From Fibrobacter succinogenes subsp. succinogenes S85 (GTDB lineage: Bacteria > Fibrobacterota > Fibrobacteria > Fibrobacterales > Fibrobacteraceae): a stretch of DNA of 32,000 nt. A model generated the notes under the pieces. The model was not told where the DNA came from. It searched no databases and worked only from the letters and a program-made list of their open reading frames with translations. A program made the position numbers and the translations under genes. The stretch covers positions 1,080,001 to 1,112,000 of the forward strand of contig NC_017448.1 of the NCBI RefSeq assembly GCF_000146505.1, read 5' to 3'. Shown here one piece after another: positions 4,630-20,755 of this stretch (within the stretch, counting starts at the first letter, position 1; the number at the start of each line of letters is the position of its first letter).

Positions 4630-7600
4630 TTATCGGACATTCACGATTCGATTTCGTCCAGCAACTCGCAAGAGGTAACGACCGGACTTTGCCACTTGCA
4701 GCATAACCGTAGAACCGTTGGCTTGGCCATGTTGCAACAAGCGTCCCTGCAAGTCCATGAGCGCATAAGAATCACCCACTCGCAAACCGCTAATTTCAAC
4801 CATACGGCCTTGCGTACGGATTGCCACCGGCGAAGCAACAAAAGCAGATGCAATCGAGACCTTGCCGGAACTGCTTGATTTCGGCACGTTCGATGAACTT
4901 GACGATTTCACAGACGAACTGCTCGATTTCACAGAGCTGCTACTAGACTGCGGCACACTGGACGAAGATGACTTCACAGAACTGCTGCTAGACTGCGGCG
5001 CACTCGACGAAGACACTTCCGTCGCACTTGAAGAGCTTGAAGAACTCGAAACGCTCGAAGAGCTAGAACTTCTCGGAGCAGTCACGACAGCGAGCAGGCT
5101 ATCGATAAACTTATCCGAAACTTTATTATTCAACACCGGATACTTATCGCTATCCGACTGCGTCCAAGCAGAACCATCCAAGCCATGATCCCTGTAAGAC
5201 TGCAAACGCTTCAGAAGATTCTTGTTGGCGAAATCTTCGGCAGCAACAGCTGTACCACCAAGTCCCTCCTGCAAACCTTCCAAATAGTAGGCAGCATCCA
5301 AATGAAGGTCCACATAATCCTTCTTGAACCCACAGACACCGCCTATAGAATCTGTTCCAGAAACATTGCCCAAATTGTACGAATTGTAAATAAACGCCGA
5401 ATCGTTCTTAAGAGAACCCACCAAGCCACCAACAACACTCGTTTTCGAGGTCACAGTAGCCACATTGTAGGAGTTACTCAAATGCAAGAAATCAGTCATT
5501 TCGCCACCGATCAAGCCACCAACACTTCGTTCCCAAATAGAGCTAACAGAGCCTTCATTATACGAATACATCATCATAAGCGAGCCATAGATTTCATACG
5601 AAAGGCCCACAAGTCCACCCACATCAGCATAACCTTCAACCGAACCACGATGATAACTAGAAAGCACCAAGGTCTGAGAACGATCCGTGTAGCCAATCAA
5701 GCCACCGACATTTTCATACCCCTTGACGACACCTTCAAAATAAGAATTGGCAATAACTAAAGACTTTCCATACATCTCGCCAACAAAACCGCCAACATCG
5801 TTTCCGCCAGAGATATACGAATCGACAATACCCAAATTCTTGATAATTAGATTTCCCGATTCAATTTTACCGAAAAAGCCCTTATAGCCATAAAGGCCCG
5901 AAATCGTATGACCATTGCCATCAAATACACCTTGATAGTTATTTAACGGGAACCACTGCACAAACGAAGATATTTTTGACGAATCCAGTTTTCCATCGAC
6001 CAAAACATTCTTGTTCAAAACGATATCGTTCGTCAGCTTGGTACATAACGTAGGACGATTTACCGAATACCTGTACAAGGAATCAACAAAGGACGAGAAC
6101 AGAATCAGTTCTCCCTCATCGCCCAGTTCGTAACAGTCGCCCACCATCTGTGGATAATGCCACCACTTTGCATAGAATGTCTGCGTTCCCTTCGCATCTG
6201 CAGGCACACTCTTTACCGGTTCACCCGAAAAATCATCACTAGCATACCAGCCCTTAAAAACATAGTCCTTACGAACAGGAGTCGGCAGCGAAAGTTTAAT
6301 GCCTTCAATGTACGAATTCGAATACTTTACCGTATCTTCAGGGAAAGTCACCAATTTCAATTCAGAAGTTTCAAAGTTCGTCGTAACCTCTCCACTAAAG
6401 ACGGGATAAGCATCATAGCCGACATGCTGGCCCCAAAGCAAACCATTTATACCCGATTCCCCATAGTCATGAAGAAGTTTTGCAACAGAGCCATCCGTGA
6501 ATTTATCAGCATCCACCTGGATAATTCCAAAATCTTTTTCACTACCGCAATTAAAACAGAATATTTCCGTTCCTGTTTTTTCAGAAAAAGAATTGATAAA
6601 TTCAATACTTCCCGCACTAGCCAAACCGACAAGAGGATAAGCTTCTCTAGACTCTTTTTTCGATAACGGATCTGCACCATACGAATTAACAACATAAGAG
6701 TTTGATTCAATATTATTAGTGCCAACCAAAGAACCATTGTATGATCCCATAAAATCAGGATTCACCTTGAGGTCCGCCACGCTATAAGAATTGACGATGT
6801 AAAATTTTCCGGTAGCCCAACTCATCAAGCCACCAATTGAACTATTGTTGCTTTCAAGAACACCGTCAAAATAAGAATCTTCTATTCCTAAGGAATCGCC
6901 CGCATGACTACCGACCAAACCTCCGGCACCACCATACAAATAAGAGGAACCATGACAATTTTTAATAGTCACGGTTTTGCTCTTCGTTTTAACGGATCCA
7001 ACCAATGAGCCTACAGAACCAAAAATGTAAAAATAGGAATCCTCAATTCCGACATTTTCAATCTTGACCTGGCGTGATTCATCAGGTGCGTATACAGTCG
7101 CAAATAAGCCCATTGCATCACGAAGCAAGCTATCATTGAAATAAAGCCCTGATATGGTGTGACCCGCACCATCAAAAGTTCCAGCAAAATTAGTTACCGC
7201 AAACCACGGGATAAAATTACCGCCGTTGCCATTGAGCGTATCCTTTGCTAGCACGTTCTTGTTGACCACAATATCCTTAGTGAGCTTGCCACAGACGGGA
7301 GTTTCACTATACAGCGAGGCATTTGCAATAAAGCCAAAACCATAAAGTTCCTCTGCCGTACCAATCTGATAACAGCCATCTACAACGGAGGGAGTCTTCG
7401 CAACGATATTCAATGTCGAAGAACCGACCACGAATTTTCCGGACAACTGCGGTATATCATCGACGCCAAGCCATTGTCCCCATACCGAGCCATCAATTCC
7501 GTCCTTATTGTAATTACGTAAACGTTGTGCCAGCGTCCCATCTTTCAGCTCTTTTTCATCAATATTTATACCATATTTACTACTCGCCCACGAATCAACA

Positions 7601-9721: not shown

Positions 9722-9776
9722 AAAAACTCCTTGTTGTGACTACAAATATAAAATTATTAGGCAACCATTAACGGAG

Positions 9777-9798
9777 ATGCCCGCTCGGTGGCGGGCAT
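9777..9798 (-). terminator. GC-rich hairpin downstream of the 572-aa lipoprotein gene (possible terminator; no U-tract)
   Basis: ATGCCCGC-tcggtg-GCGGGCAT is a perfect 8-bp stem, 19 nt past the stop at 9817. On the minus strand it is followed by CTCCGTTAATGG, not a U-run, so its function is uncertain. Confidence 0.35.
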
Positions 9799-9816
9799 GA
9801 CAATGAAATTTTGCGG

Positions 9817-11535
9817 TTAATTACTTTCGGCGTTTTTTATGCAACGGACAGAAAGCTGAGAGTTCGTAGAAAAATCCTCAATTGAAGCTTCGCGGACTAT
9901 GTATTGGAGATATGATTTATGTACTAAATGCACGCACTTTCCAGAATTACGAGAACTCCAAAAATACGCATCCGAACCCAACCCACCTTCATGGTACGTA
10001 CCTTCATCAAAAAAATTCACACCCCCAGGAAGTGCCGTAAAGCCAAACAAATCAGAACCATTTCCCGCATCCCCCCACATCTCTGAAGACTTAAGAACTT
10101 CTCCAGCATTATTTTTTGCGTCTGAATTTTGATCTAATTCATTAACAGCGTAAATAAGTCCTTCCCAATCCGCTAAGCTAGGCAAACGCCAACCATTAGG
10201 GCAAGCATTTTTAGCGGCCGCCAATGAATAGAGTCTCCCATATATTTCACAATTCGATTCTTTATTTTCATAGCAACGACTATTTTCTGTTTCATAATTC
10301 ACGTTTTCGGCCATCCAAGTTTCGGAGTAATCTTTATCCTTAACTTCAATCGTCGTGTACTTGTAAACCTGATAAGTTTTTTCTTCAGTGGTTTTATTTT
10401 CAAATTCGGCACAGAACAAGTGATCTGCATCCGCTATCTTGATTTTTTCATCGCCGCATTTTTCATAGACCACGGTCTTTTTGCCTTCAACGCATTCTTC
10501 TAATTCTATGTCATACGATTCGCCACCACAAAGATCATACGTTTTATCGTTTACACAGAATTTTTTATGCACATTATACAATTCGTCGCCGCAAGACTTG
10601 ATAAATTGTACAACTACGCCATCAACACATTCATCCGTATCAGGGACATATGTTTTGCCGTTGCAAAGAGGATACACACTGCCATCCGCCATGCAGAAAC
10701 TTTTTTCAGGGTCAAAAGGCTTTGAGCCGCAAAAGGCTTTGTAAAGCTTTGTCGAAGTCGCATCTTTGCCTTCGCCGCACTGGATTTGAACAATACCATT
10801 CTCATCACTGGCTATTTTGCAGCTAACGCCGTCAGCACCATTCGAGCCGTTGGTTCCGTCTGCGCCTTTAGTACCAGGAGTACCCGGTTCACCCTGTTTA
10901 CCATCAACACCATTGTGAATCGTTACGGACTTGTCTCCGCAGGTCACAACAACATCATCGCTATCTGCGGCTTTGGCGACAGAGCAAGACGTTCCGTCTT
11001 TACCGTTGGTACCATCCTTACCATTTGTACCAGGAGTTCCATCTTTACCGTTAGTGCCTGGAGCACCATCTTTACCATTGGTGCCGTTCTTCACGCTACC
11101 GATAGGCTTGCCATCACAGATAACATCAAATCCAGAACCATCCTTAAAAGCGGTCATAGTGCAAGACTTTCCGTCTTTACCATCGGCGCCATCTTTGCCA
11201 TCAGTACCGTCTTTTCCGTTCTTGCCATCGGTTCCGTTTTTACCATCTTTGCCGTTAGTGCCGTCCTTACCATTGGCACCATCATGACCATCACTTCCAT
11301 TAGAGCCACTGACAGCAGCGCCGGTAACGGCCGCCCAGCCATTATCCGTGCAAGCATATACCTTTACGGAATCGGACACATAAACAAACTTGCCAATAAT
11401 ATCTTTGTTGCATTCGCTCAAGTCGCTGAACGCAGTTACAGTTTCAGCAGAATTTCCAGAAACAGGTGTGAGTTCATCCTCACAAGCAGTGAAATACACA
11501 GCCATGCCAAACAACGGCAAAAGATATTTCTTCAT
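9817..11535 (-). CDS. Lipoprotein with three collagen-like G-X-Y runs, Cys-rich repeat modules and one C-terminal Fibrobacter major paralogous domain
   Basis: Lipobox VYFTA|C (Cys18) followed by the acidic EDEL; RBS AGGAGAAAATAAATG. Uninterrupted G-X-Y runs of 16, 11 and 10 triplets occupy aa 77-124, 151-183 and 209-238. Each run ends in S-C-x13-14-C-[GD]-x-K. CxxxxxYxLCxGxxYxxxxxECVxG repeats span aa 262-376. The C-terminal domain reads WMAENVNYE..CYENKESNCEIYGRLYS...CPNGWRLPSLADWEGL...FGFTALPGG...AYFWSS...SVRCIKN (9835-10374). Confidence 0.88.
   Translation of the reverse strand: MKKYLLPLFGMAVYFTACEDELTPVSGNSAETVTAFSDLSECNKDIIGKFVYVSDSVKVYACTDNGWAAVTGAAVSGSNGSDGHDGANGKDGTNGKDGKNGTDGKNGKDGTDGKDGADGKDGKSCTMTAFKDGSGFDVICDGKPIGSVKNGTNGKDGAPGTNGKDGTPGTNGKDGTNGKDGTSCSVAKAADSDDVVVTCGDKSVTIHNGVDGKQGEPGTPGTKGADGTNGSNGADGVSCKIASDENGIVQIQCGEGKDATSTKLYKAFCGSKPFDPEKSFCMADGSVYPLCNGKTYVPDTDECVDGVVVQFIKSCGDELYNVHKKFCVNDKTYDLCGGESYDIELEECVEGKKTVVYEKCGDEKIKIADADHLFCAEFENKTTEEKTYQVYKYTTIEVKDKDYSETWMAENVNYETENSRCYENKESNCEIYGRLYSLAAAKNACPNGWRLPSLADWEGLIYAVNELDQNSDAKNNAGEVLKSSEMWGDAGNGSDLFGFTALPGGVNFFDEGTYHEGGLGSDAYFWSSRNSGKCVHLVHKSYLQYIVREASIEDFSTNSQLSVRCIKNAESN
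10822..11307 (-). repeat. Collagen-like triplet-repeat coding region (three G-X-Y blocks: 11164-11307, 10987-11085, 10822-10911)
   Basis: GSNGSDGHDGANGKDGTNGKDGKNGTDGKNGKDGTDGKDGADGKDGKS / GTNGKDGAPGTNGKDGTPGTNGKDGTNGKDGTS / GVDGKQGEPGTPGTKGADGTNGSNGADGVS. At the DNA level these are repetitive 9-nt (GGN-NNN-NNN) periodic sequence. Confidence 0.9.
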
Positions 11536-11617: not shown

Positions 11618-13585
11618 TCAATCCTTCACACAGCGGATGGTGAACGCATGATGCTTTTCAATACCGCTAAATTGAATTCCTTTGCCATTGTAATTATTTG
11701 AATTTTGGAGAGACATGTGATATGCCTCGTCTGTACTACTTTCTATAGAGCTCCAATAATTTACTGGTGGATTACAAAATCCGCTTGTGCCATCACGTTC
11801 CATATTGCAACTCGGGTACGCCGAAAACCCATAATCATCCGTTCCTTCCTCCACCCAATCAAAACCTTTTTCCAATTTCTTAGCAGACATGAGTTTTGAT
11901 GCGGCATCATATTCGCCACCAGCCGTCGCCACCAAGCTTTTCCATTCCGCCAAGGTCGGCAAATGGAAACCTTCAGGACAAACTCCGCGAACCGGGAAAT
12001 TCGGGGGACAAGACGTTCCTGAACCACATCCCTTACCATTTACGCTAAAAGCACCCACACTATCCATTGCCGAAGCCCAAGTGTAAAAACGGCCATACAG
12101 TTCACAATATTGGGTAGAGTCATGGTAGCAAAAACTACCTGCGGTCTTGTAATTGAGATTTTCGGCCATCCAAACTTGATTACCAATTTTAGTCGTTTTA
12201 TACGTTTGTCCATCACGAGAATCAACAACAGAATCCATAACGGCTGTTTTTCCAATTCTTTCAACTTTTGTCTGCAATCCATCATTAGAAGCACTTTCCT
12301 GTGTAGCCTCATCCTTCACACAACGAATCGGCATATCTTCACGTTTTAGACCGGAGTCAATCCCCACTTCTTTTTTCCCGTTCACATAAACATCAAGACG
12401 CATTCCAAGTGCATAATCATCTTCATTACCTTTATCGGAACTCCAATAAAAAGCAGACTCTGCACATACACTCTCAACGCCATCTTCTGTACATAGTAAA
12501 CTATTTCCATTAGCAACCATGGAAAATCCATTATCTGCCTTTGATTCAAAGATATCACACGCCGCCGTTTTACCACCTAAAACAGAAATCAAAGTATTCC
12601 ATTCGGTTGTATCCGGCAAATGCCAACCAATAGGGCAAATTCCACGCACAGGTCTCGTCCTATTTTTCTGAGAGTACGCATCTCCCATCGCTATTTTCCA
12701 CGTATAACTTCCATAATCTCCGCAATAATACCTTAAGCACTCATCATCGTGTTCGGCCTTATAAGCCAAATCTTCTGCCATCCAAGTCTGTTTGCCATAA
12801 GTCACCATCTTGTAAACATTTCCATCGCGAATATCTACAAATTGATTACTCGTTTCGCCGAAAGGCAAAGTTCTCTTTCCGATAAATTCATTTTTAGTTA
12901 AAGAATCATCTTTAAGGCAGCGAACAGAATACTTATTGTCCTTATTTTCTCCAAGCAAGAACGCTTCATCACTTTCGCTTCTTAACCCCATGAAATACGC
13001 AAGGCTATCATTGTAATAATCAGAACTCCAGAAAAAAGTTTCTCCATCGGAACTAAACTCCCCATTACTTTTTTCGTATCCACTTAGAAGCGCCGAAAAG
13101 CCAGAAGCATTCGTCGCCGTCTTATGTCCACGCGAACCCCCGCCCCAATTTTTTGACGTCTTAAGCGCTATAGCCGCAGAAACTTTCCCACCAAGAGCAG
13201 AAAAAAGCACATGCCAATCCGATTGCGTCGGCAAATGCCATTCCACAGGACATGATTCAAGCGCAGCCTTCCAAGCATAGAGACGGCCATTTTTATAGCA
13301 ATTACTTACAAAGCCATCATAGCATGTACTATTCGCCATTTCATAATTCAAGTTTTCAGACATCCAGGTTTGAGAACCTATCGTTACGATCTTGTAAATT
13401 TGACCATCACGTGAGTCCATCATGTGCATCCCGGAATCCGCTATAGAATCAGCAGATTCACGACTAGGCGACAAATCATTACCTGATGTTGCATTTACTT
13501 CATTAGATTCAGGTTTCGTCCCGCCACAAGCGACAAGGATCAAAAACAAAACTGCACCAGCAACAGTAAAAAATTTTTCTTTCAT
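11618..13585 (-). CDS. Lipoprotein with three Fibrobacter succinogenes major paralogous domains
   Basis: Lipobox LILVA|C (Cys20). Domain copies lie at about 12911-13423, 12311-12841 and 11621-12229. Each begins [MVF]DxRDG(Q/N)xYK..T.G.Q.WM.E(N/D)L and ends RC[LV]KD. Only 14 bp separate it from the upstream gene. Confidence 0.9.
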   Translation of the reverse strand: MKEKFFTVAGAVLFLILVACGGTKPESNEVNATSGNDLSPSRESADSIADSGMHMMDSRDGQIYKIVTIGSQTWMSENLNYEMANSTCYDGFVSNCYKNGRLYAWKAALESCPVEWHLPTQSDWHVLFSALGGKVSAAIALKTSKNWGGGSRGHKTATNASGFSALLSGYEKSNGEFSSDGETFFWSSDYYNDSLAYFMGLRSESDEAFLLGENKDNKYSVRCLKDDSLTKNEFIGKRTLPFGETSNQFVDIRDGNVYKMVTYGKQTWMAEDLAYKAEHDDECLRYYCGDYGSYTWKIAMGDAYSQKNRTRPVRGICPIGWHLPDTTEWNTLISVLGGKTAACDIFESKADNGFSMVANGNSLLCTEDGVESVCAESAFYWSSDKGNEDDYALGMRLDVYVNGKKEVGIDSGLKREDMPIRCVKDEATQESASNDGLQTKVERIGKTAVMDSVVDSRDGQTYKTTKIGNQVWMAENLNYKTAGSFCYHDSTQYCELYGRFYTWASAMDSVGAFSVNGKGCGSGTSCPPNFPVRGVCPEGFHLPTLAEWKSLVATAGGEYDAASKLMSAKKLEKGFDWVEEGTDDYGFSAYPSCNMERDGTSGFCNPPVNYWSSIESSTDEAYHMSLQNSNNYNGKGIQFSGIEKHHAFTIRCVKD

Positions 13586-16924: not shown

Positions 16925-18481
16925 TTAGAATTTCAAATCAACCGGATTGAAATTGAATTTCACACCCGAGCGGAGCCATGCATCAGAGCCATCTTCACGC
17001 TTGTCATGCGAAAGATTGCGATAAACACGGAAACCGCCTCCAACGTAGTACTTAAACCAATCCGTCACGGTTTCTTCGTAAAGGGCATCAACGACAAATT
17101 GCGTTTCAACAACTCCCGAAAGCGCATTTTCCGGTTTCAACGCAACATCGTAGTCCGTATAAAGTTCCTTATCGCCCTGGCGCAGCCAAGCGAACGTCAA
17201 CGTTGCAGAACGGCGAGAAGTTTTCCAGTTCATATCAAACCAGAGGTCAAGCGCATCGCCACCTCTGCGGTAGCCAATCGGATAATCTACAAAGTAGGCG
17301 TCGGCATAATCACGGTCGCCCTGTTCACGGAAATTGCTGCGATAATTGCGGCGCCCCGTGTATTTTAAAAGCGGGAGCCTGCTGTTGTTTGCCGCAGGGT
17401 CTGTTTTCACAACATCCAATCGCCAAGAAAATTTGCCGTAATTGCGGGTTTCAAGCTCGTGATAATAACCGACCATGTAATTAATGATAGAGCGGTTCGT
17501 CCCCATCTTTTTGTCTTCACCGACCGGGCTTGCAATATCTTCCATGTTAATTTGGCTGTAGAATTTCGCACCATTAGACGTCTTGTAACCAAATTCTACA
17601 GAAGTCGCCGCAGAAGTATAACCCGTGGCGTAATTATCGTGCCAGTACATAAACGGGTTGAAAGAGCGGAATTCCAGAGATTTGCCGCCGATGACACTTT
17701 GTTCCACAAGGTAAATCCAGAATTTTTTAGTATCAACACCGAGCCTGTGGAATACCATATTCTTCACGTTCTCAGTATAAGTGCGATTACGCTGGTTACT
17801 CACCTGCTTTCCGCGCGGCGTACACTTTTGGGCGTAAGCCTCGCTACCTTCTGGCGGGCAGCCCGTTTCGTGATTAATCACATCATTAAAAAGCCAAGCG
17901 TTCAACGAACTCAGCAAAAAGTCATAGCGGAAAATGCCGATATTCAATTTCCAGTGGATACCGTCGTGATATGGTAAACCACCCAAGAAAATATCGTTCT
18001 TGGAAATTTTCAAGTCTTCGGGATTAAAACGGCCGAACTGCACAAAGCCAATAGAATTATCCCACTTGGCGTAGGCATTAATTGGCACATTGATATCGAG
18101 TTCGCTCGGCTTGTAAGTAAAGTTCGTCTTGAGGTCGTTATTGTACCAAGCTTCCAAATCTTTGCGCAAAGGCGCTTCCATCAAGAAGTGGAAATCCTTG
18201 TAGCCCGCACGGAAGCTGAGCGTAAAGAACGGATTGATGCGTTCCTCGTAATTGCGGGCCGTCTCCAGCGGAATGCGCAACCCGCGCCAATTTCCACCGT
18301 AATTTTCCGCCGTATCCACAGCAAACGTCGGGTCGGTCGGGCCGCCATTAAAACCGAAATTGAAATCCGTCCCAATCTGGAAATAGCCAACCTTTTCCGC
18401 AGGCTTTTCAGAAACATTTTCAGCCGAGGCAAGCGCCGCCACCGCCATCAAACAAGCAAACAATAAAGCACGAGATAACAT
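16925..18481 (-). CDS. Putative outer-membrane beta-barrel protein (family not recognised)
   Basis: Sec signal peptide MLSRALLFACLMAVAALASA|EN. The sequence is rich in Y/W/F/G/N with many alternating hydrophobic stretches. The C-terminus ...GVKFNFNPVDLKF ends in Phe, as in the OMP beta-signal. It heads the lipoprotein gene string. No SD is visible upstream. Confidence 0.65.
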   Translation of the reverse strand: MLSRALLFACLMAVAALASAENVSEKPAEKVGYFQIGTDFNFGFNGGPTDPTFAVDTAENYGGNWRGLRIPLETARNYEERINPFFTLSFRAGYKDFHFLMEAPLRKDLEAWYNNDLKTNFTYKPSELDINVPINAYAKWDNSIGFVQFGRFNPEDLKISKNDIFLGGLPYHDGIHWKLNIGIFRYDFLLSSLNAWLFNDVINHETGCPPEGSEAYAQKCTPRGKQVSNQRNRTYTENVKNMVFHRLGVDTKKFWIYLVEQSVIGGKSLEFRSFNPFMYWHDNYATGYTSAATSVEFGYKTSNGAKFYSQINMEDIASPVGEDKKMGTNRSIINYMVGYYHELETRNYGKFSWRLDVVKTDPAANNSRLPLLKYTGRRNYRSNFREQGDRDYADAYFVDYPIGYRRGGDALDLWFDMNWKTSRRSATLTFAWLRQGDKELYTDYDVALKPENALSGVVETQFVVDALYEETVTDWFKYYVGGGFRVYRNLSHDKREDGSDAWLRSGVKFNFNPVDLKF

Positions 18482-18527
18482 AACATAAATGTATTAAAAT
18501 TTTTTCTTTTTTTGTCCGCATCCGCGA

Positions 18528-18621
18528 GCGGAGCGGACACGCCGTGAGCCACAAGTGCCTCATATTAACGAGGCATGGTGGCGAGAGCGGAGCGCCGACG
18601 GAGTTTTTCTATTAAATCAAA
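18528..18621. repeat. Repeat unit 1 (94 bp)
   Basis: GCGGAGCGGACACGCCGTGAGCC-ACAAG-TGCCTCATATTAACGAGGCA-TGGT-GGCGAGAGCGGAGCGCCGACGGAGTTTTTCTATTAAATCAAA. The inner hairpin TGCCTC/GAGGCA is at 18556-18575. The outer pairing is GCCAC/GTGGC. Confidence 0.9.
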
Positions 18622-18717
18622 GCGAAGCGGGTACTCTGTGAGCCATAAGCGGCACGGCGTAAGCGTGCCGTGTTGGCGAGAGCGAAGCGCCGACGGAGTT
18701 TTTCTATTAAATCAAAA
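18622..18717. repeat. Repeat unit 2 (96 bp)
   Basis: GCGAAGCGGGTACTCTGTGAGCC-ATAAG-CGGCAC(G)GC-GTAA-GCGTGCCG-TGTT-GGCGAGAGCGAAGCGCCGACGGAGTTTTTCTATTAAATCAAAA. The hairpin (18650-18670) is unrelated in sequence to unit 1. It has a GNRA-type loop and one bulge. The outer pairing is GCCA/TGGC. Confidence 0.9.
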
Positions 18718-18811
18718 GCGGAGCGGACACACCGTGAGCCGGAATGACCAAGCGCAAGCTGGTCATGAAGGCGAGAGCGAAGCGCCGACGGAGTTTTTCT
18801 ATTAAATCAAA
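18718..18811. repeat. Repeat unit 3 (94 bp)
   Basis: GCGGAGCGGACACACCGTGAGCC-GGA-ATGACCA(A)GC-GCAA-GCTGGTCAT-GAA-GGCGAGAGCGAAGCGCCGACGGAGTTTTTCTATTAAATCAAA. This is a third unrelated hairpin (18744-18766). It also has a GNRA-type loop and a single bulge at the same relative place as in unit 2. Confidence 0.9.
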
Positions 18812-18880
18812 GCGAAGCGGACACCCGTGAGCCACAAGTGCCTCGTATCAACGAGGCATGGTGGCGAGAGCGAGACGACG
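18812..18880. repeat. Repeat unit 4 (3' flank degenerate)
   Basis: GCGAAGCGGACACCCGTGAGCC-ACAAG-TGCCTCGT-ATCA-ACGAGGCA-TGGT-GGCGAGAGCGAG... The hairpin (18839-18858) is the unit-1 type but with a perfect 8-bp stem. Downstream, the conserved block decays (ACGACGATGGATGTTCCATATTACACAAGAG). Confidence 0.85.
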
Positions 18881-18967
18881 ATGGATGTTCCATATTACAC
18901 AAGAGTTGAGCGGACATCAGAAGGACCACCCAGGCAGGGAGACCCGGGTGATCCCTTGTGTTGTGGT

Positions 18968-19004
18968 GGGTGCGCACTCACGCACCCGTGTGTGTGTTCT
19001 TTCT
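18968..19004 (+). terminator. Candidate plus-strand intrinsic terminator at the distal end of the repeat array
   Basis: GGGTGCG-cactca-CGCACCC (7-bp GC stem, 18968-18987) is followed on the + strand by GTGTGTGTGTTCTTTCT. On the minus strand it is followed by ACCACAACAC, which has no U-tract. It would end a transcript running antisense to the flanking genes. Confidence 0.3.
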
Positions 19005-19081
19005 CGGAGGCGTGTTCGAAAACTTCGAACGCACCAGGTCGAATTTCGTTATTGCAATGTAGGGCTAATCGTTATACACGA

Positions 19082-20755
19082 TTAGTACAAATCAGAATTC
19101 ATACGCATAAAGGCCGGCAGGTCGTAATCAACATCGCGGTCCTTGAGTGCGTCTTCAGAAGCCTTCTGGTTACGCATGATTGCCGGAGTGGAGTAATCAA
19201 TCGTGTTCACCTGTTCGGTCTGAGCCGGGCGGGAATCCTGCTTGAAAGTGCTTGCGTAGTGGCCGTTAGAAAGCGGGTCAGCTTCGGCAGCACCCGGCAT
19301 TTCTTCGGTTTCACGAATGCTCTTCGGAGCAATGGTTTCTTCCGTGTAGCTAGCCTTGGCATCAAAACTCGGGGAAGCGAAAGAAGAAGCCGGAGCGAAC
19401 ATTGCAGCAGCCGTGTTCACCGGAGCAGCCTGGCGGGCTGCAGCGGGCTGAGCATAAGTGTTCTGCGGAGCCGTGTAAGACTGAGCAGAGTAAGACGGAG
19501 CAGCAGGAGCTGTAGCCGGGACAACACGCTGTGTGACAGCCGGAGTGGCAACCGTCGGAGCGGCAGGCATAGCGGAGGTCGGCATAGCGGCCGTGTTACG
19601 GCCAGCAAGAGCGAGGAAGTTCGTGGTCGGGCGCGGAGTAGCGGCCTGCACCGGAGCAGCCGGGGCCTGATACTGAGCCTGAGTCTGATTCATCTGATAA
19701 GCAGCGGTACCGATACCGGCATAGTTCACAGCAGCGGCATTGTTAGAGCCACCGCAACCCGTTGCGATGATGGTGATGCAAACCTTGTCGCCAAGTTCCG
19801 GAAGAGTGATGTCACCGACGATGATGTTCGGGTTGCCTTCTTCGCCCACGGCGTCGTAAATGTGTTCCATTGCTTCGTTGTGTTCGAGCAAGGAGTAGTT
19901 TTCGCCGTGAGAAACGTTGATGAGCACGCCAGAAGCACCCTGGATGTCGATATCTTCGAGGAGCGGAGAAGAGAGGGCTGCATCGGCAGCGGCAACACCG
20001 CGGCCTTCGCCTTCTGCAGTACCCGTACCCATAAGAGCGGAACCACCCTTGAGCATAACCTTGCGGATATCAGCAAAGTCAACATGCACGAGACCGTGAC
20101 GGAACATGATGCTGCAGATGCTCTGCACTGCGTTACCGAGGATTTCATCAGCCATCTTGAAGGCTTCGTCAACAGTAGCACTCTTGTTCGTGTTCTGGAT
20201 GAGGTTCAAGAGCTTCTTGTTTTCGATAACGATGATCGTATCAGCAGCTTCGCGGAGAGCGCGAACGCCATTCTGAGCCAAGGAATTACGGACGTTACCT
20301 TCAAAGCGGAACGGCTTTGTAACAACGGCAACCGTAAGGATACCAAGTTCACGTGCAACAGTAGCAACGATCGGAGCTGCACCCGTACCGGTACCACCGC
20401 CCATACCTGCAGTCACGAACACGAGGTCCGCACCCATCATGGCCTTCTTCAAGTCGTCAATGTTTTCTTCGACAGCCTTGCGACCCATTTCCGGATCCAT
20501 GCCAGCACCGAGATTTCTCGTGCTCTTTTCACCGATAAGGATCTTGTGGTCGGCGAGACTCTGGTCCAGAGCCATAGCGTCAGTATTGATGGCGTAGTAT
20601 TCCACACCTTCAATATTCATCTGCTTCATGCGGTTCACAGTATTGCCGCCGGCACCGCCGACGCCAAAGACCTTCACCTTGGCATTTCTGGTTGGAGTGT
20701 CATCACCCGTGATACGAGACATAGCCTCGAAATTGATATTTGCAAAGTCACTCAT
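19082..20755 (-). CDS. ftsZ: Cell division GTPase FtsZ with a long A/P/Q/T-rich C-terminal linker
   Basis: Motifs seen: GVGGAGGN and the tubulin signature GMGGGTGTGAAPIVA. The core ends near ...ITIIATGCGG (aa ~335). The linker of about 205 aa spans 19136-19750. The C-terminal conserved peptide is DVDYDLPAFMRMN. RBS: GGGAGATAAACT-ATG. Confidence 0.97.
   Translation of the reverse strand: MSDFANINFEAMSRITGDDTPTRNAKVKVFGVGGAGGNTVNRMKQMNIEGVEYYAINTDAMALDQSLADHKILIGEKSTRNLGAGMDPEMGRKAVEENIDDLKKAMMGADLVFVTAGMGGGTGTGAAPIVATVARELGILTVAVVTKPFRFEGNVRNSLAQNGVRALREAADTIIVIENKKLLNLIQNTNKSATVDEAFKMADEILGNAVQSICSIMFRHGLVHVDFADIRKVMLKGGSALMGTGTAEGEGRGVAAADAALSSPLLEDIDIQGASGVLINVSHGENYSLLEHNEAMEHIYDAVGEEGNPNIIVGDITLPELGDKVCITIIATGCGGSNNAAAVNYAGIGTAAYQMNQTQAQYQAPAAPVQAATPRPTTNFLALAGRNTAAMPTSAMPAAPTVATPAVTQRVVPATAPAAPSYSAQSYTAPQNTYAQPAAARQAAPVNTAAAMFAPASSFASPSFDAKASYTEETIAPKSIRETEEMPGAAEADPLSNGHYASTFKQDSRPAQTEQVNTIDYSTPAIMRNQKASEDALKDRDVDYDLPAFMRMNSDLY

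Follow-up and report, generated by a model that had tools for sequence, protein, structure and literature searches.

The stretch of DNA analyzed here, called the window below, comprises 32,000 nucleotides of Fibrobacter succinogenes subsp. succinogenes S85 (contig NC_017448.1, positions 1,080,001 to 1,112,000), and our subject is an array of ~95-nt hairpin-forming repeat units in the intergenic region between two of its minus-strand genes. The upstream neighbor in the sense of transcription is ftsZ, with ftsA and the remaining cell-division cluster upstream of it in turn; the downstream neighbor encodes a 518-aa protein. An earlier interpretation made from the letters alone (the sequence-only reading) had labeled this product an outer-membrane protein, a label that stands unverified because the protein has zero Pfam or NCBIfam matches. 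The synteny of ftsZ and the 518-aa gene holds across Fibrobacter down to an FtsZ identity as low as 76%. The features of the locus are listed below, with bit scores for the units taken from a covariance model, R1, built from the wider repeat family.

16925-18481, minus strand: 518-aa gene, downstream neighbor, family unassigned by Pfam or NCBIfam
18514-18541, plus strand: left boundary of the cluster, with a small hairpin formed by GTCCGC (18514-18519) and GCGGAC (18533-18538), in direct reading
18540-18633, plus strand: unit 1, hairpin variant A (GCC 18548...GGC 18582), linker L1; R1 87.8 bits, model positions 1-94
18634-18729, plus strand: unit 2, hairpin variant B at 18642-18677, GUAA loop, one-base bulge, linker L1; R1 81.6 bits
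18730-18822, plus strand: unit 3, hairpin variant C at 18738-18772, GCAA loop, one-base bulge, linker L1; R1 68.5 bits
18823-18916, plus strand: unit 4, hairpin variant A at 18831-18865 with perfect pairing, L2-like linker; R1 92.7 bits
18919-18987, minus strand: ftsZ-DE RNA (RF02985), two hairpins; cmscan 97.5 bits, E = 3e-19, gathering score 72.2
19082-20755, minus strand: ftsZ, with Pfam Tubulin and FtsZ_C domains

The tandem array and the known RNA beside it

Tandem Repeats Finder reported a single array at 18527-18838 (period 95, 3.3 copies, score 350), and the 42-nt block at the 3′ side of the units occurred three times at no more than one mismatch, against none in 100 shuffles. The R1 model delineated exactly four full-length units, scoring 68-93 bits, at 18540-18916 on the plus strand; over the whole 32 kb, its next-best match outside the array reached just 11.7 bits. 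The tandem array proposed in the sequence-only reading was borne out in this form, as four units with near-invariant flanks and a center that folds in each. The tetraloops and bulge described for units 2 and 3 were likewise recovered, as GUAA and GCAA on the plus strand with a one-base bulge each. Other parts of that description changed. The supposed decayed fifth repeat (18866-18916) belongs to unit 4, as its 3′ half; the linker of that unit is of subtype L2, typical of the dispersed family, and the centers, said to differ completely, are instead three discrete variants (A, B, and C) that recur almost unchanged in other strains. Variant C of unit 3 is identical in most of them. The hairpin of unit 1 has an A·C mismatch on the plus strand that reads as G·U on the minus strand. 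Unit 4 is the best match to the consensus of the dispersed family (nhmmer E = 6e-18 against a profile made from dispersed copies alone), and its hairpin is identical to that of a dispersed copy in locus L049.

The ftsZ-DE RNA directly adjoins unit 4. It is an already known RNA outside the repeat family, its motif having come from a Fibrobacter-directed search (Weinberg et al. 2017, PMC5737381), and the units gave no match to its model. It shares with them a common intergenic region, specificity to Fibrobacter, and direct adjacency, but it lies opposite to their G-rich strand, is single-copy, and occurs only downstream of ftsZ. Every orthologous locus tested contained it, and none of the loci with dispersed copies did. 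The stretch 18968-19004, taken earlier for a plus-strand GC hairpin with a G/T-rich tail, is hairpin 1 of ftsZ-DE read on the opposite strand. Between ftsZ-DE and the ftsZ stop codon, at 19009-19035, we also observed a palindromic hairpin, GGCGTGTTCGAAAACTTCGAACGCACC, which is kept with some changes in orthologous loci.

Fold and strand of the repeat unit

The unit consists of CCGUGAGCC, an imperfect hairpin of ~33 nt (P2), GGCGAGAG, and a helix (P3) with purine-purine mismatches, and it ends in ...GAGCCGARCGGUCU. P3 encloses a variable stretch of ~24 nt, which is absent from a short form of the unit. The minimal copy runs precisely from CCGTGAGCC to ...AGAGCCGARCGGTCT. The termini (CCGTGAGCC... 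and ...GAGCCGARCGGTCT) are not inverted; the redundancy is direct, with a second copy of the last ~15 nt standing ahead of many units. In S85, the hairpin at the left edge of the cluster overlaps such a partial unit end, GCGAGCGGAGCGGACACG, the terminal direct repeat ahead of unit 1, and a partial end (AGCCGARCGGTCT/AGCGGAGCGGACAC) also lies ahead of the first units of orthologous arrays and of many dispersed copies. The 5′ flank of a unit travels with the preceding type of linker.

The fold was examined in an alignment of 40 diverse units (A1), in which a helix P1, the outer and inner parts of P2, and P3 were tested. The proposed helices were paired in 80.3% of cells, compared with 21-38% when the partners were slid by 1-3 columns, and P2 folded in all units, with 80-86% of its cells paired. 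Double changes occurred in 14 pairs, 10 of them in P2, and the covariation score of 0.266 (0.128 in shuffled alignments) was reached by none of 500 shuffles. The closing pair of P3 is CG in 19 units, UA in 18, and UG in three, and is unpaired in none; the third pair of the outer helix occurs as CG, GC, AU, and UA. Given no structure, RNAalifold recovered P2 and P3, but P1 is uncertain because the program prefers a G51-C95 pair over the three-pair P1. The junctions TGAGC (UGAGC) and GCGAGAG are invariant, and in two divergent copies (L125 and L092), the G·A and A·G mismatches of P3 become Watson-Crick A-U pairs. The alignment thus shows the predicted fold to be maintained by compensatory changes, so that the argument for structural selection made from S85 alone emerges strengthened. 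A closing helix of ACNCCGU in the 5′ flank with ACGGAGU ahead of the T-run, suggested by folds of single sequences, was dropped as it showed no covariation, and a kink-turn reading of GUGA/GAGAG was dropped because the flanking helix it needs is unsupported by the sequences.

Of the 46 hairpins and 40 whole units compared, 38 in each group fold better on the plus strand, the one running antisense to the two neighboring genes at ftsZ; 27 of the 40 aligned units have a basal G·U pair in the inner stem, and G·U cells outnumber A·C cells overall by 42 to 21. GNRA loops and tandem G·A mismatches are seen on the plus strand only. These features modestly favor the G-rich plus strand as the predicted folding strand. 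G-rich strands fold better in energy models whatever their function, and G·T wobbles, sheared G·A pairs, and GNA/GNRA loops form in single-stranded DNA too. Because such pairs and loops form in both, RNA and single-stranded DNA are not separable here.

Orthologous arrays and dispersed copies

Orthologous loci were collected by several routes. An exact 24-mer from the 3′ flank led to three species-representative genomes, all at the ftsZ-DE locus, and FtsZ homologues of 96-76% identity led to 32 further loci; with ~27 metagenome matches, the set comprises ~60 Fibrobacter contigs. The gene order is constant throughout (ftsZ, ftsZ-DE, units, a gene of ~500 aa), while the intergenic region ranges from 341 to 1075 bp and holds one to seven units, no contig being without any. 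A covariance scan of 22 kb from each of two isolates found no extra copy beyond the array. The arrays are mosaics of the hairpin variants A (TGCCTCGTATTAACGAGGCA), A′ (GGTGACTCGTATTGACGAGTCATC), B (CGGCACGGCGTAAGCGTGCCG), B′ (combining the stem of B with the loop of A), and C (ATGACCAAGCGCAAGCTGGTCAT), combined with linkers L1 or L2, which are ~70% alike, and an optional D insert. The insert is ~55 nt long, forms two hairpins (GACCACTTAGTGCTTTAGCACTTATGTGG and GGCCACCTTTAGGTGG), and is placed between GGCGA and the linker. We noted it in L014 (an array independent of ilvD), L029/L030, L001, L003, L033, L035, and L037, and among dispersed copies in L055 (3956), L124 (4344), and L131; in L014 and L029, another ~55 nt are nested within the first D hairpin.

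Among the isolates, S85 has four units in the order A-B-C-A, UWB4 has three, and UWB12 has four with two D inserts. Unit number and order therefore differ among isolate genomes, and the variation is real and not merely an effect of assembly. Three S85-like Logan assemblies (L005, L006, and L007) show A-A units alone, an intergenic region shorter by 190 bp, and an identical neighboring protein. As the junction falls in the identical L1 linker, this form is probably a collapse of short-read assembly across identical L1 linkers, and these variants were left out of the evidence.

Copies away from ftsZ came from a metagenome scan with the pattern CCGTGAGCCN{20,30}GGCGARAGYGNRGCG, which accepts both linker types. 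It yielded at least 80 loci, and the counts drawn from them are lower bounds: at least about 27 are ftsZ loci, at least about 41 hold genuine units elsewhere, and ~12 are chance matches on soil or human-gut contigs that have no hairpin. The dispersed-unit loci lack ftsZ, ftsZ-DE, and the 518-aa gene nearby and represent at least about 25 distinct flank contexts. Most of their units are single copies, often just 3′ of stop codons, although dimers or trimers stand at some sites, and several contigs have two separate sites each. Dispersed units carry compensated stems of their own (GCGACTCG...CGAGTCGT, GCGATTCG...CGAATCGT, GCGACCCG...CGGGTCGT, TCGCCAAGCGCAAGCTGGCGA, and AGCTCCAGGCGTTAAGCTGGAGC). 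Among the matches listed, linker L2 is found in all dispersed copies and L1 at ftsZ loci only. The 24-mer scan had first suggested that the repeat is specific to its locus, an appearance that arose because the 24-mer is L1-specific and the dispersed copies all have L2; it was overturned once the L2-matching pattern found the dispersed copies. From the flanking IlvD and Pta proteins, the dispersed contigs were placed in Fibrobacter sp. UWEL-like and other uncultured Fibrobacter/Fibrobacteraceae. For S85, the 32-kb window holds no dispersed copy outside the array, and following IlvD and Pta pointed to Fibrobacter lineages other than S85. The viral, phage, and plasmid collections contained nothing similar to the repeat.

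The repeat is present or absent at the same site among close strains, and unit number and order differ between strains at ftsZ and dispersed sites alike. Behind pta, loci L128-130 are empty, the stop codon running directly into a hairpin of a second repeat family (H0, below) plus a canonical terminator. Locus L049 has a single unit inserted right behind the pta stop codon, and L131 has a pair of units, of which one contains a D insert. The Pta protein is identical in L128-131, and that of L049 is 95% identical to it. At ilvD, the isolate UWEL is empty and a unit is present in seven metagenome contigs (L053 at 9922-10105, L054, L085, L086, L090, L108, and L109), 2 nt past a new stop codon. The last 13 codons of the gene (GAVRDLSLIGVK*) are repeated after the unit with different synonymous codons, and the insertion apparently supplies the gene with a replacement 3′ end, whether brought along or newly created. 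No target-site duplication is evident at pta, and the 13-codon doubling at ilvD is unlike the usual short one. Dispersed sites vary in copy number as well, with one or two units at two sites and one or three at a third. The units are sense after ilvD and antisense after pta; a tally of contexts, based on crude gene calls and redundant loci, gave 18 convergent, eight divergent, and nine co-directional settings (three sense, six antisense). Units thus stand in no fixed orientation and favor gene 3′ ends. Within every array, the units stand head-to-tail on one strand, with no alternation.

Three further observations concern the surroundings of the units. Just 3′ of the units in L056, L078, L079/L120, L122, L068, L083, and L059 lies a conserved, apparently structured segment that begins AAGGGG-N6-CCCCTCG and continues with covarying hairpins; in L078, L120, L122, L068, and L083, it had no Rfam match at the gathering score. 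The H0 family is built of GGAGAT, a GC stem of 6-8 bp, a loop of 4-6 nt, the returning stem, and ATGACAA, with stems that covary. A simple scan counted 70 copies in 50 loci; they often precede the first unit by 10-20 nt (at most of the ftsZ loci, the pta site, and the L046/L081 sites) but also stand alone. Examples of H0 are as follows:

window 9773-9803, plus strand
L053 10107-10145
L126 ~11863-11895
L046 ~6903-6940

Elsewhere in the window, tandem repeats with periods of 9, 18, and 27 (e.g., GCCATCTTT) at 11011-11273 could be a repetitive coding segment.

Interpretation and related systems

The sequence-only reading had given first place to tandem small RNA genes transcribed antisense to both neighbors, each with a -10-like box and a terminator-like end. 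Tandem arrays of small RNA genes do resemble the present array in repeating structured units of ~100 nt within one intergenic region, but the Fibrobacter units have no promoter or terminator of their own and occur as singles at unrelated sites, in both orientations and against stop codons. A consensus scan, whose consensus does not cover the promoter rules of Fibrobacter, found no sigma-70-like site in the units, and the sole terminator-like sites in the scan were the ftsZ-DE hairpin read as its reverse complement. The T-run is confined to the L1 linker with no stem ahead of it, and the sequences upstream of dispersed units have no conserved segment in common. The supposed signals, TATTAAAT and GGAGTTTTTCT, belong to the L1 subtype only, are found at the ftsZ locus only, and are absent from dispersed copies. 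Because the unit is also scattered singly at many unrelated intergenic sites in other Fibrobacter lineages, we interpret it as an interspersed repeat rather than as an array of small RNA genes. Such scatter is what the sequence-only reading had itself named as fatal to its small RNA idea; the evidence favors what it had listed as an alternative, a REP/MITE-like (repetitive extragenic palindrome/miniature inverted-repeat transposable element) single-stranded DNA element.

The statement that the units belong to no known RNA family was upheld by an Rfam scan, in which units and dispersed copies matched nothing even at E ≤ 10 and ftsZ-DE was the sole match. Hammerhead and other self-cleaving ribozymes and attC sites were rejected, as their core motifs are absent and there was no Rfam match at E ≤ 10. 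A clustered regularly interspaced short palindromic repeat (CRISPR) array was rejected as well: the conserved part is ~70 nt, and the variable part is a self-pairing hairpin from a small repertoire common to strains. Our literature search found no publication on Fibrobacter repeats.

We favor, with moderate confidence, the view that the array is a tandemly amplified cluster of an undescribed, ~95-nt interspersed hairpin repeat of Fibrobacteraceae, akin to REPs, bacterial interspersed mosaic elements (BIMEs), and BOX elements, whose dispersal is seen in other Fibrobacter lineages. A single-stranded fold, probably of the G-rich plus strand, would be recognized by a propagation or recombination machinery, much as REP hairpins are by their REP-associated tyrosine (RAYT) transposases. 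Unequal recombination between near-identical linkers may then expand, contract, and shuffle units that stand side by side, and at ftsZ it may have yielded L1, the linker subtype peculiar to that locus. Effects on ftsZ or its downstream neighbor, if any, would be secondary, such as a barrier at an RNA 3′ end or insulation of the two genes from each other.

Several points weigh against this interpretation. No mobilizing machinery was identified; terminal inverted repeats are absent, as is any clear target-site duplication. In some features the unit resembles a functional RNA more than selfish DNA, with junctions that are purine-rich and 100% invariant, GNRA loops, tandem G·A mismatches, and the G·U pair conserved in 27 units of the 40. 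Outside the array, the S85 window has no further copy, the dispersal being seen in other lineages, and the lone scan of a genome collection used the L1-specific 24-mer, which is blind to L2-type copies. Every lineage sampled retains one or more units at ftsZ, which suggests either a strong hotspot of insertion or recombination or a selected function.

Among the closest parallels are the REPs and BIMEs of Enterobacteria and Pseudomonas. Like them, the Fibrobacter repeat combines a short, imperfectly palindromic sequence with a conserved motif immediately 5′ of it (GTGAG, where REPs have GTAG), and it has extragenic dispersed copies mainly at gene 3′ ends, clusters of variable number, a hairpin preserved by compensatory change, and possible side effects on mRNA stability. 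The tetranucleotide of REPs is recognized by the RAYT, and the Fibrobacter unit has its invariant TGAGC 5′ of the hairpin. Unlike REPs, however, the units are ~95 nt long with a second helix and conserved linkers, and they stand head-to-tail where REPs in clusters alternate. REPs have RAYT (Y1) transposases, whereas no RAYT is linked to the Fibrobacter repeat, for which no RAYT search was made. The BOX elements of Streptococcus pneumoniae (boxA-boxB(n)-boxC), likened here by organization, a relationship in sequence not being expected, are similarly modular, with an internal module in variable tandem number, and are non-coding with a predicted fold and strain differences at the same site. They differ in their complementary terminal modules, none of which were found in the Fibrobacter repeat; what it often has beside it is the separate H0 family (GGAGAT-stem-ATGACAA), which also occurs without it. 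With MITEs, it shares small size, non-autonomy, presence/absence polymorphism, and a possible tandem-repeat core, such as the internal minisatellite of a Porphyromonas gingivalis MITE (PMC4596501), but it has direct terminal redundancy instead of terminal inverted repeats or a clear target-site duplication. On present evidence, the array at the ftsZ locus is no new class of system.

We also weighed whether the units are genes or domains of a plus-strand structured RNA family, the ftsZ array giving rise to a multi-copy antisense transcript, for example a multi-hairpin RNA that titrates a protein or unit RNAs cut from one precursor. Covariation in two helices, invariant junction nucleotides, the conserved G·U pair with G·U over A·C cells at 42 to 21, the better folding of the plus strand (38/40 whole units, 38/46 hairpins), and GNRA loops and tandem G·A mismatches exclusive to that strand all speak for it. 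We nevertheless consider it unlikely: the units are without a promoter or terminator of their own, nothing is conserved upstream of dispersed units, copies abut stop codons in both orientations and vary in presence among near-identical strains, better folding of G-rich strands is expected regardless of function, and Rfam gives no match. A sponge of the CsrA type was rejected, since the GGA of GCGGAGC alternates with GAA and GTA (GCGRAGC, also GCGTAGC), and such unconserved GGA motifs argue against it. There is a slim chance that the unit is an undescribed structured RNA with two helices, purine-rich junctions, G·A mismatches, and GNRA loops, active as a plus-strand transcript. If so, the arrays and the redundant copies of "1.15 units" would reflect protein titration or a life cycle at the level of RNA, for instance the cutting of multimeric transcripts down to single units or even copying via an RNA intermediate, and not plain DNA repeats.

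A role in cis, in which the units act within sense (minus-strand) transcripts as stable stem-loops of the ftsZ 3′ untranslated region or intergenic RNA and are kept at the locus for that purpose, would fit their position between co-directional genes, right behind ftsZ-DE on the same transcript strand. They might block 3′ exonucleases, make transcription pause or end, or free the downstream gene from its coupling to ftsZ, like REPs in Escherichia coli operons. The retention of at least one unit at every orthologous locus and the enrichment of dispersed copies at gene 3′ ends and between convergent genes fit such a role, and the hairpins fold on the minus strand as well. On that strand, however, the conserved G·U becomes an A·C mismatch and the junctions become pyrimidine loops. 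Moreover, orientation to the upstream gene varies (sense after ilvD, antisense after pta), one to seven copies and free shuffling argue against a tuned function, and no U-tract follows the minus-strand hairpins as would fit an intrinsic terminator. We regard this role, too, as improbable.

Least credible, and indeed very improbable, is that the units are sites in double-stranded DNA for a DNA-binding protein, be it nucleoid-associated, regulatory, or a recombinase, forming a tandem high-occupancy platform upstream of the 518-aa gene: although the blocks GTGAGC and GCGAGAG are invariant at fixed spacing, the L1 linker contributes an AT-rich stretch (TTTTTCTATTAAATCAAAG), and E. coli BIMEs, which bind integration host factor and gyrase (PMC2817692), offer a parallel, recognition of a duplex would not be expected to produce pairing-preserving compensatory changes, dispersed copies share no relation to promoters, and no candidate protein is known.

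The interspersed hairpin repeat is the first defined family of its kind, with a structural model, in Fibrobacter, a major fiber degrader of the rumen with little non-coding annotation. It is useful for annotation and for strain typing, as the ftsZ array varies, and for quality control of assemblies, because short-read assemblies may collapse the array. It also means that the neighbor of ftsZ-DE is a recombining repeat cluster and not a fixed regulatory leader. In joining the behavior of mobile DNA with a structural conservation like that of RNA, the repeat offers a tractable case for distinguishing recognition as single-stranded DNA from recognition as RNA.

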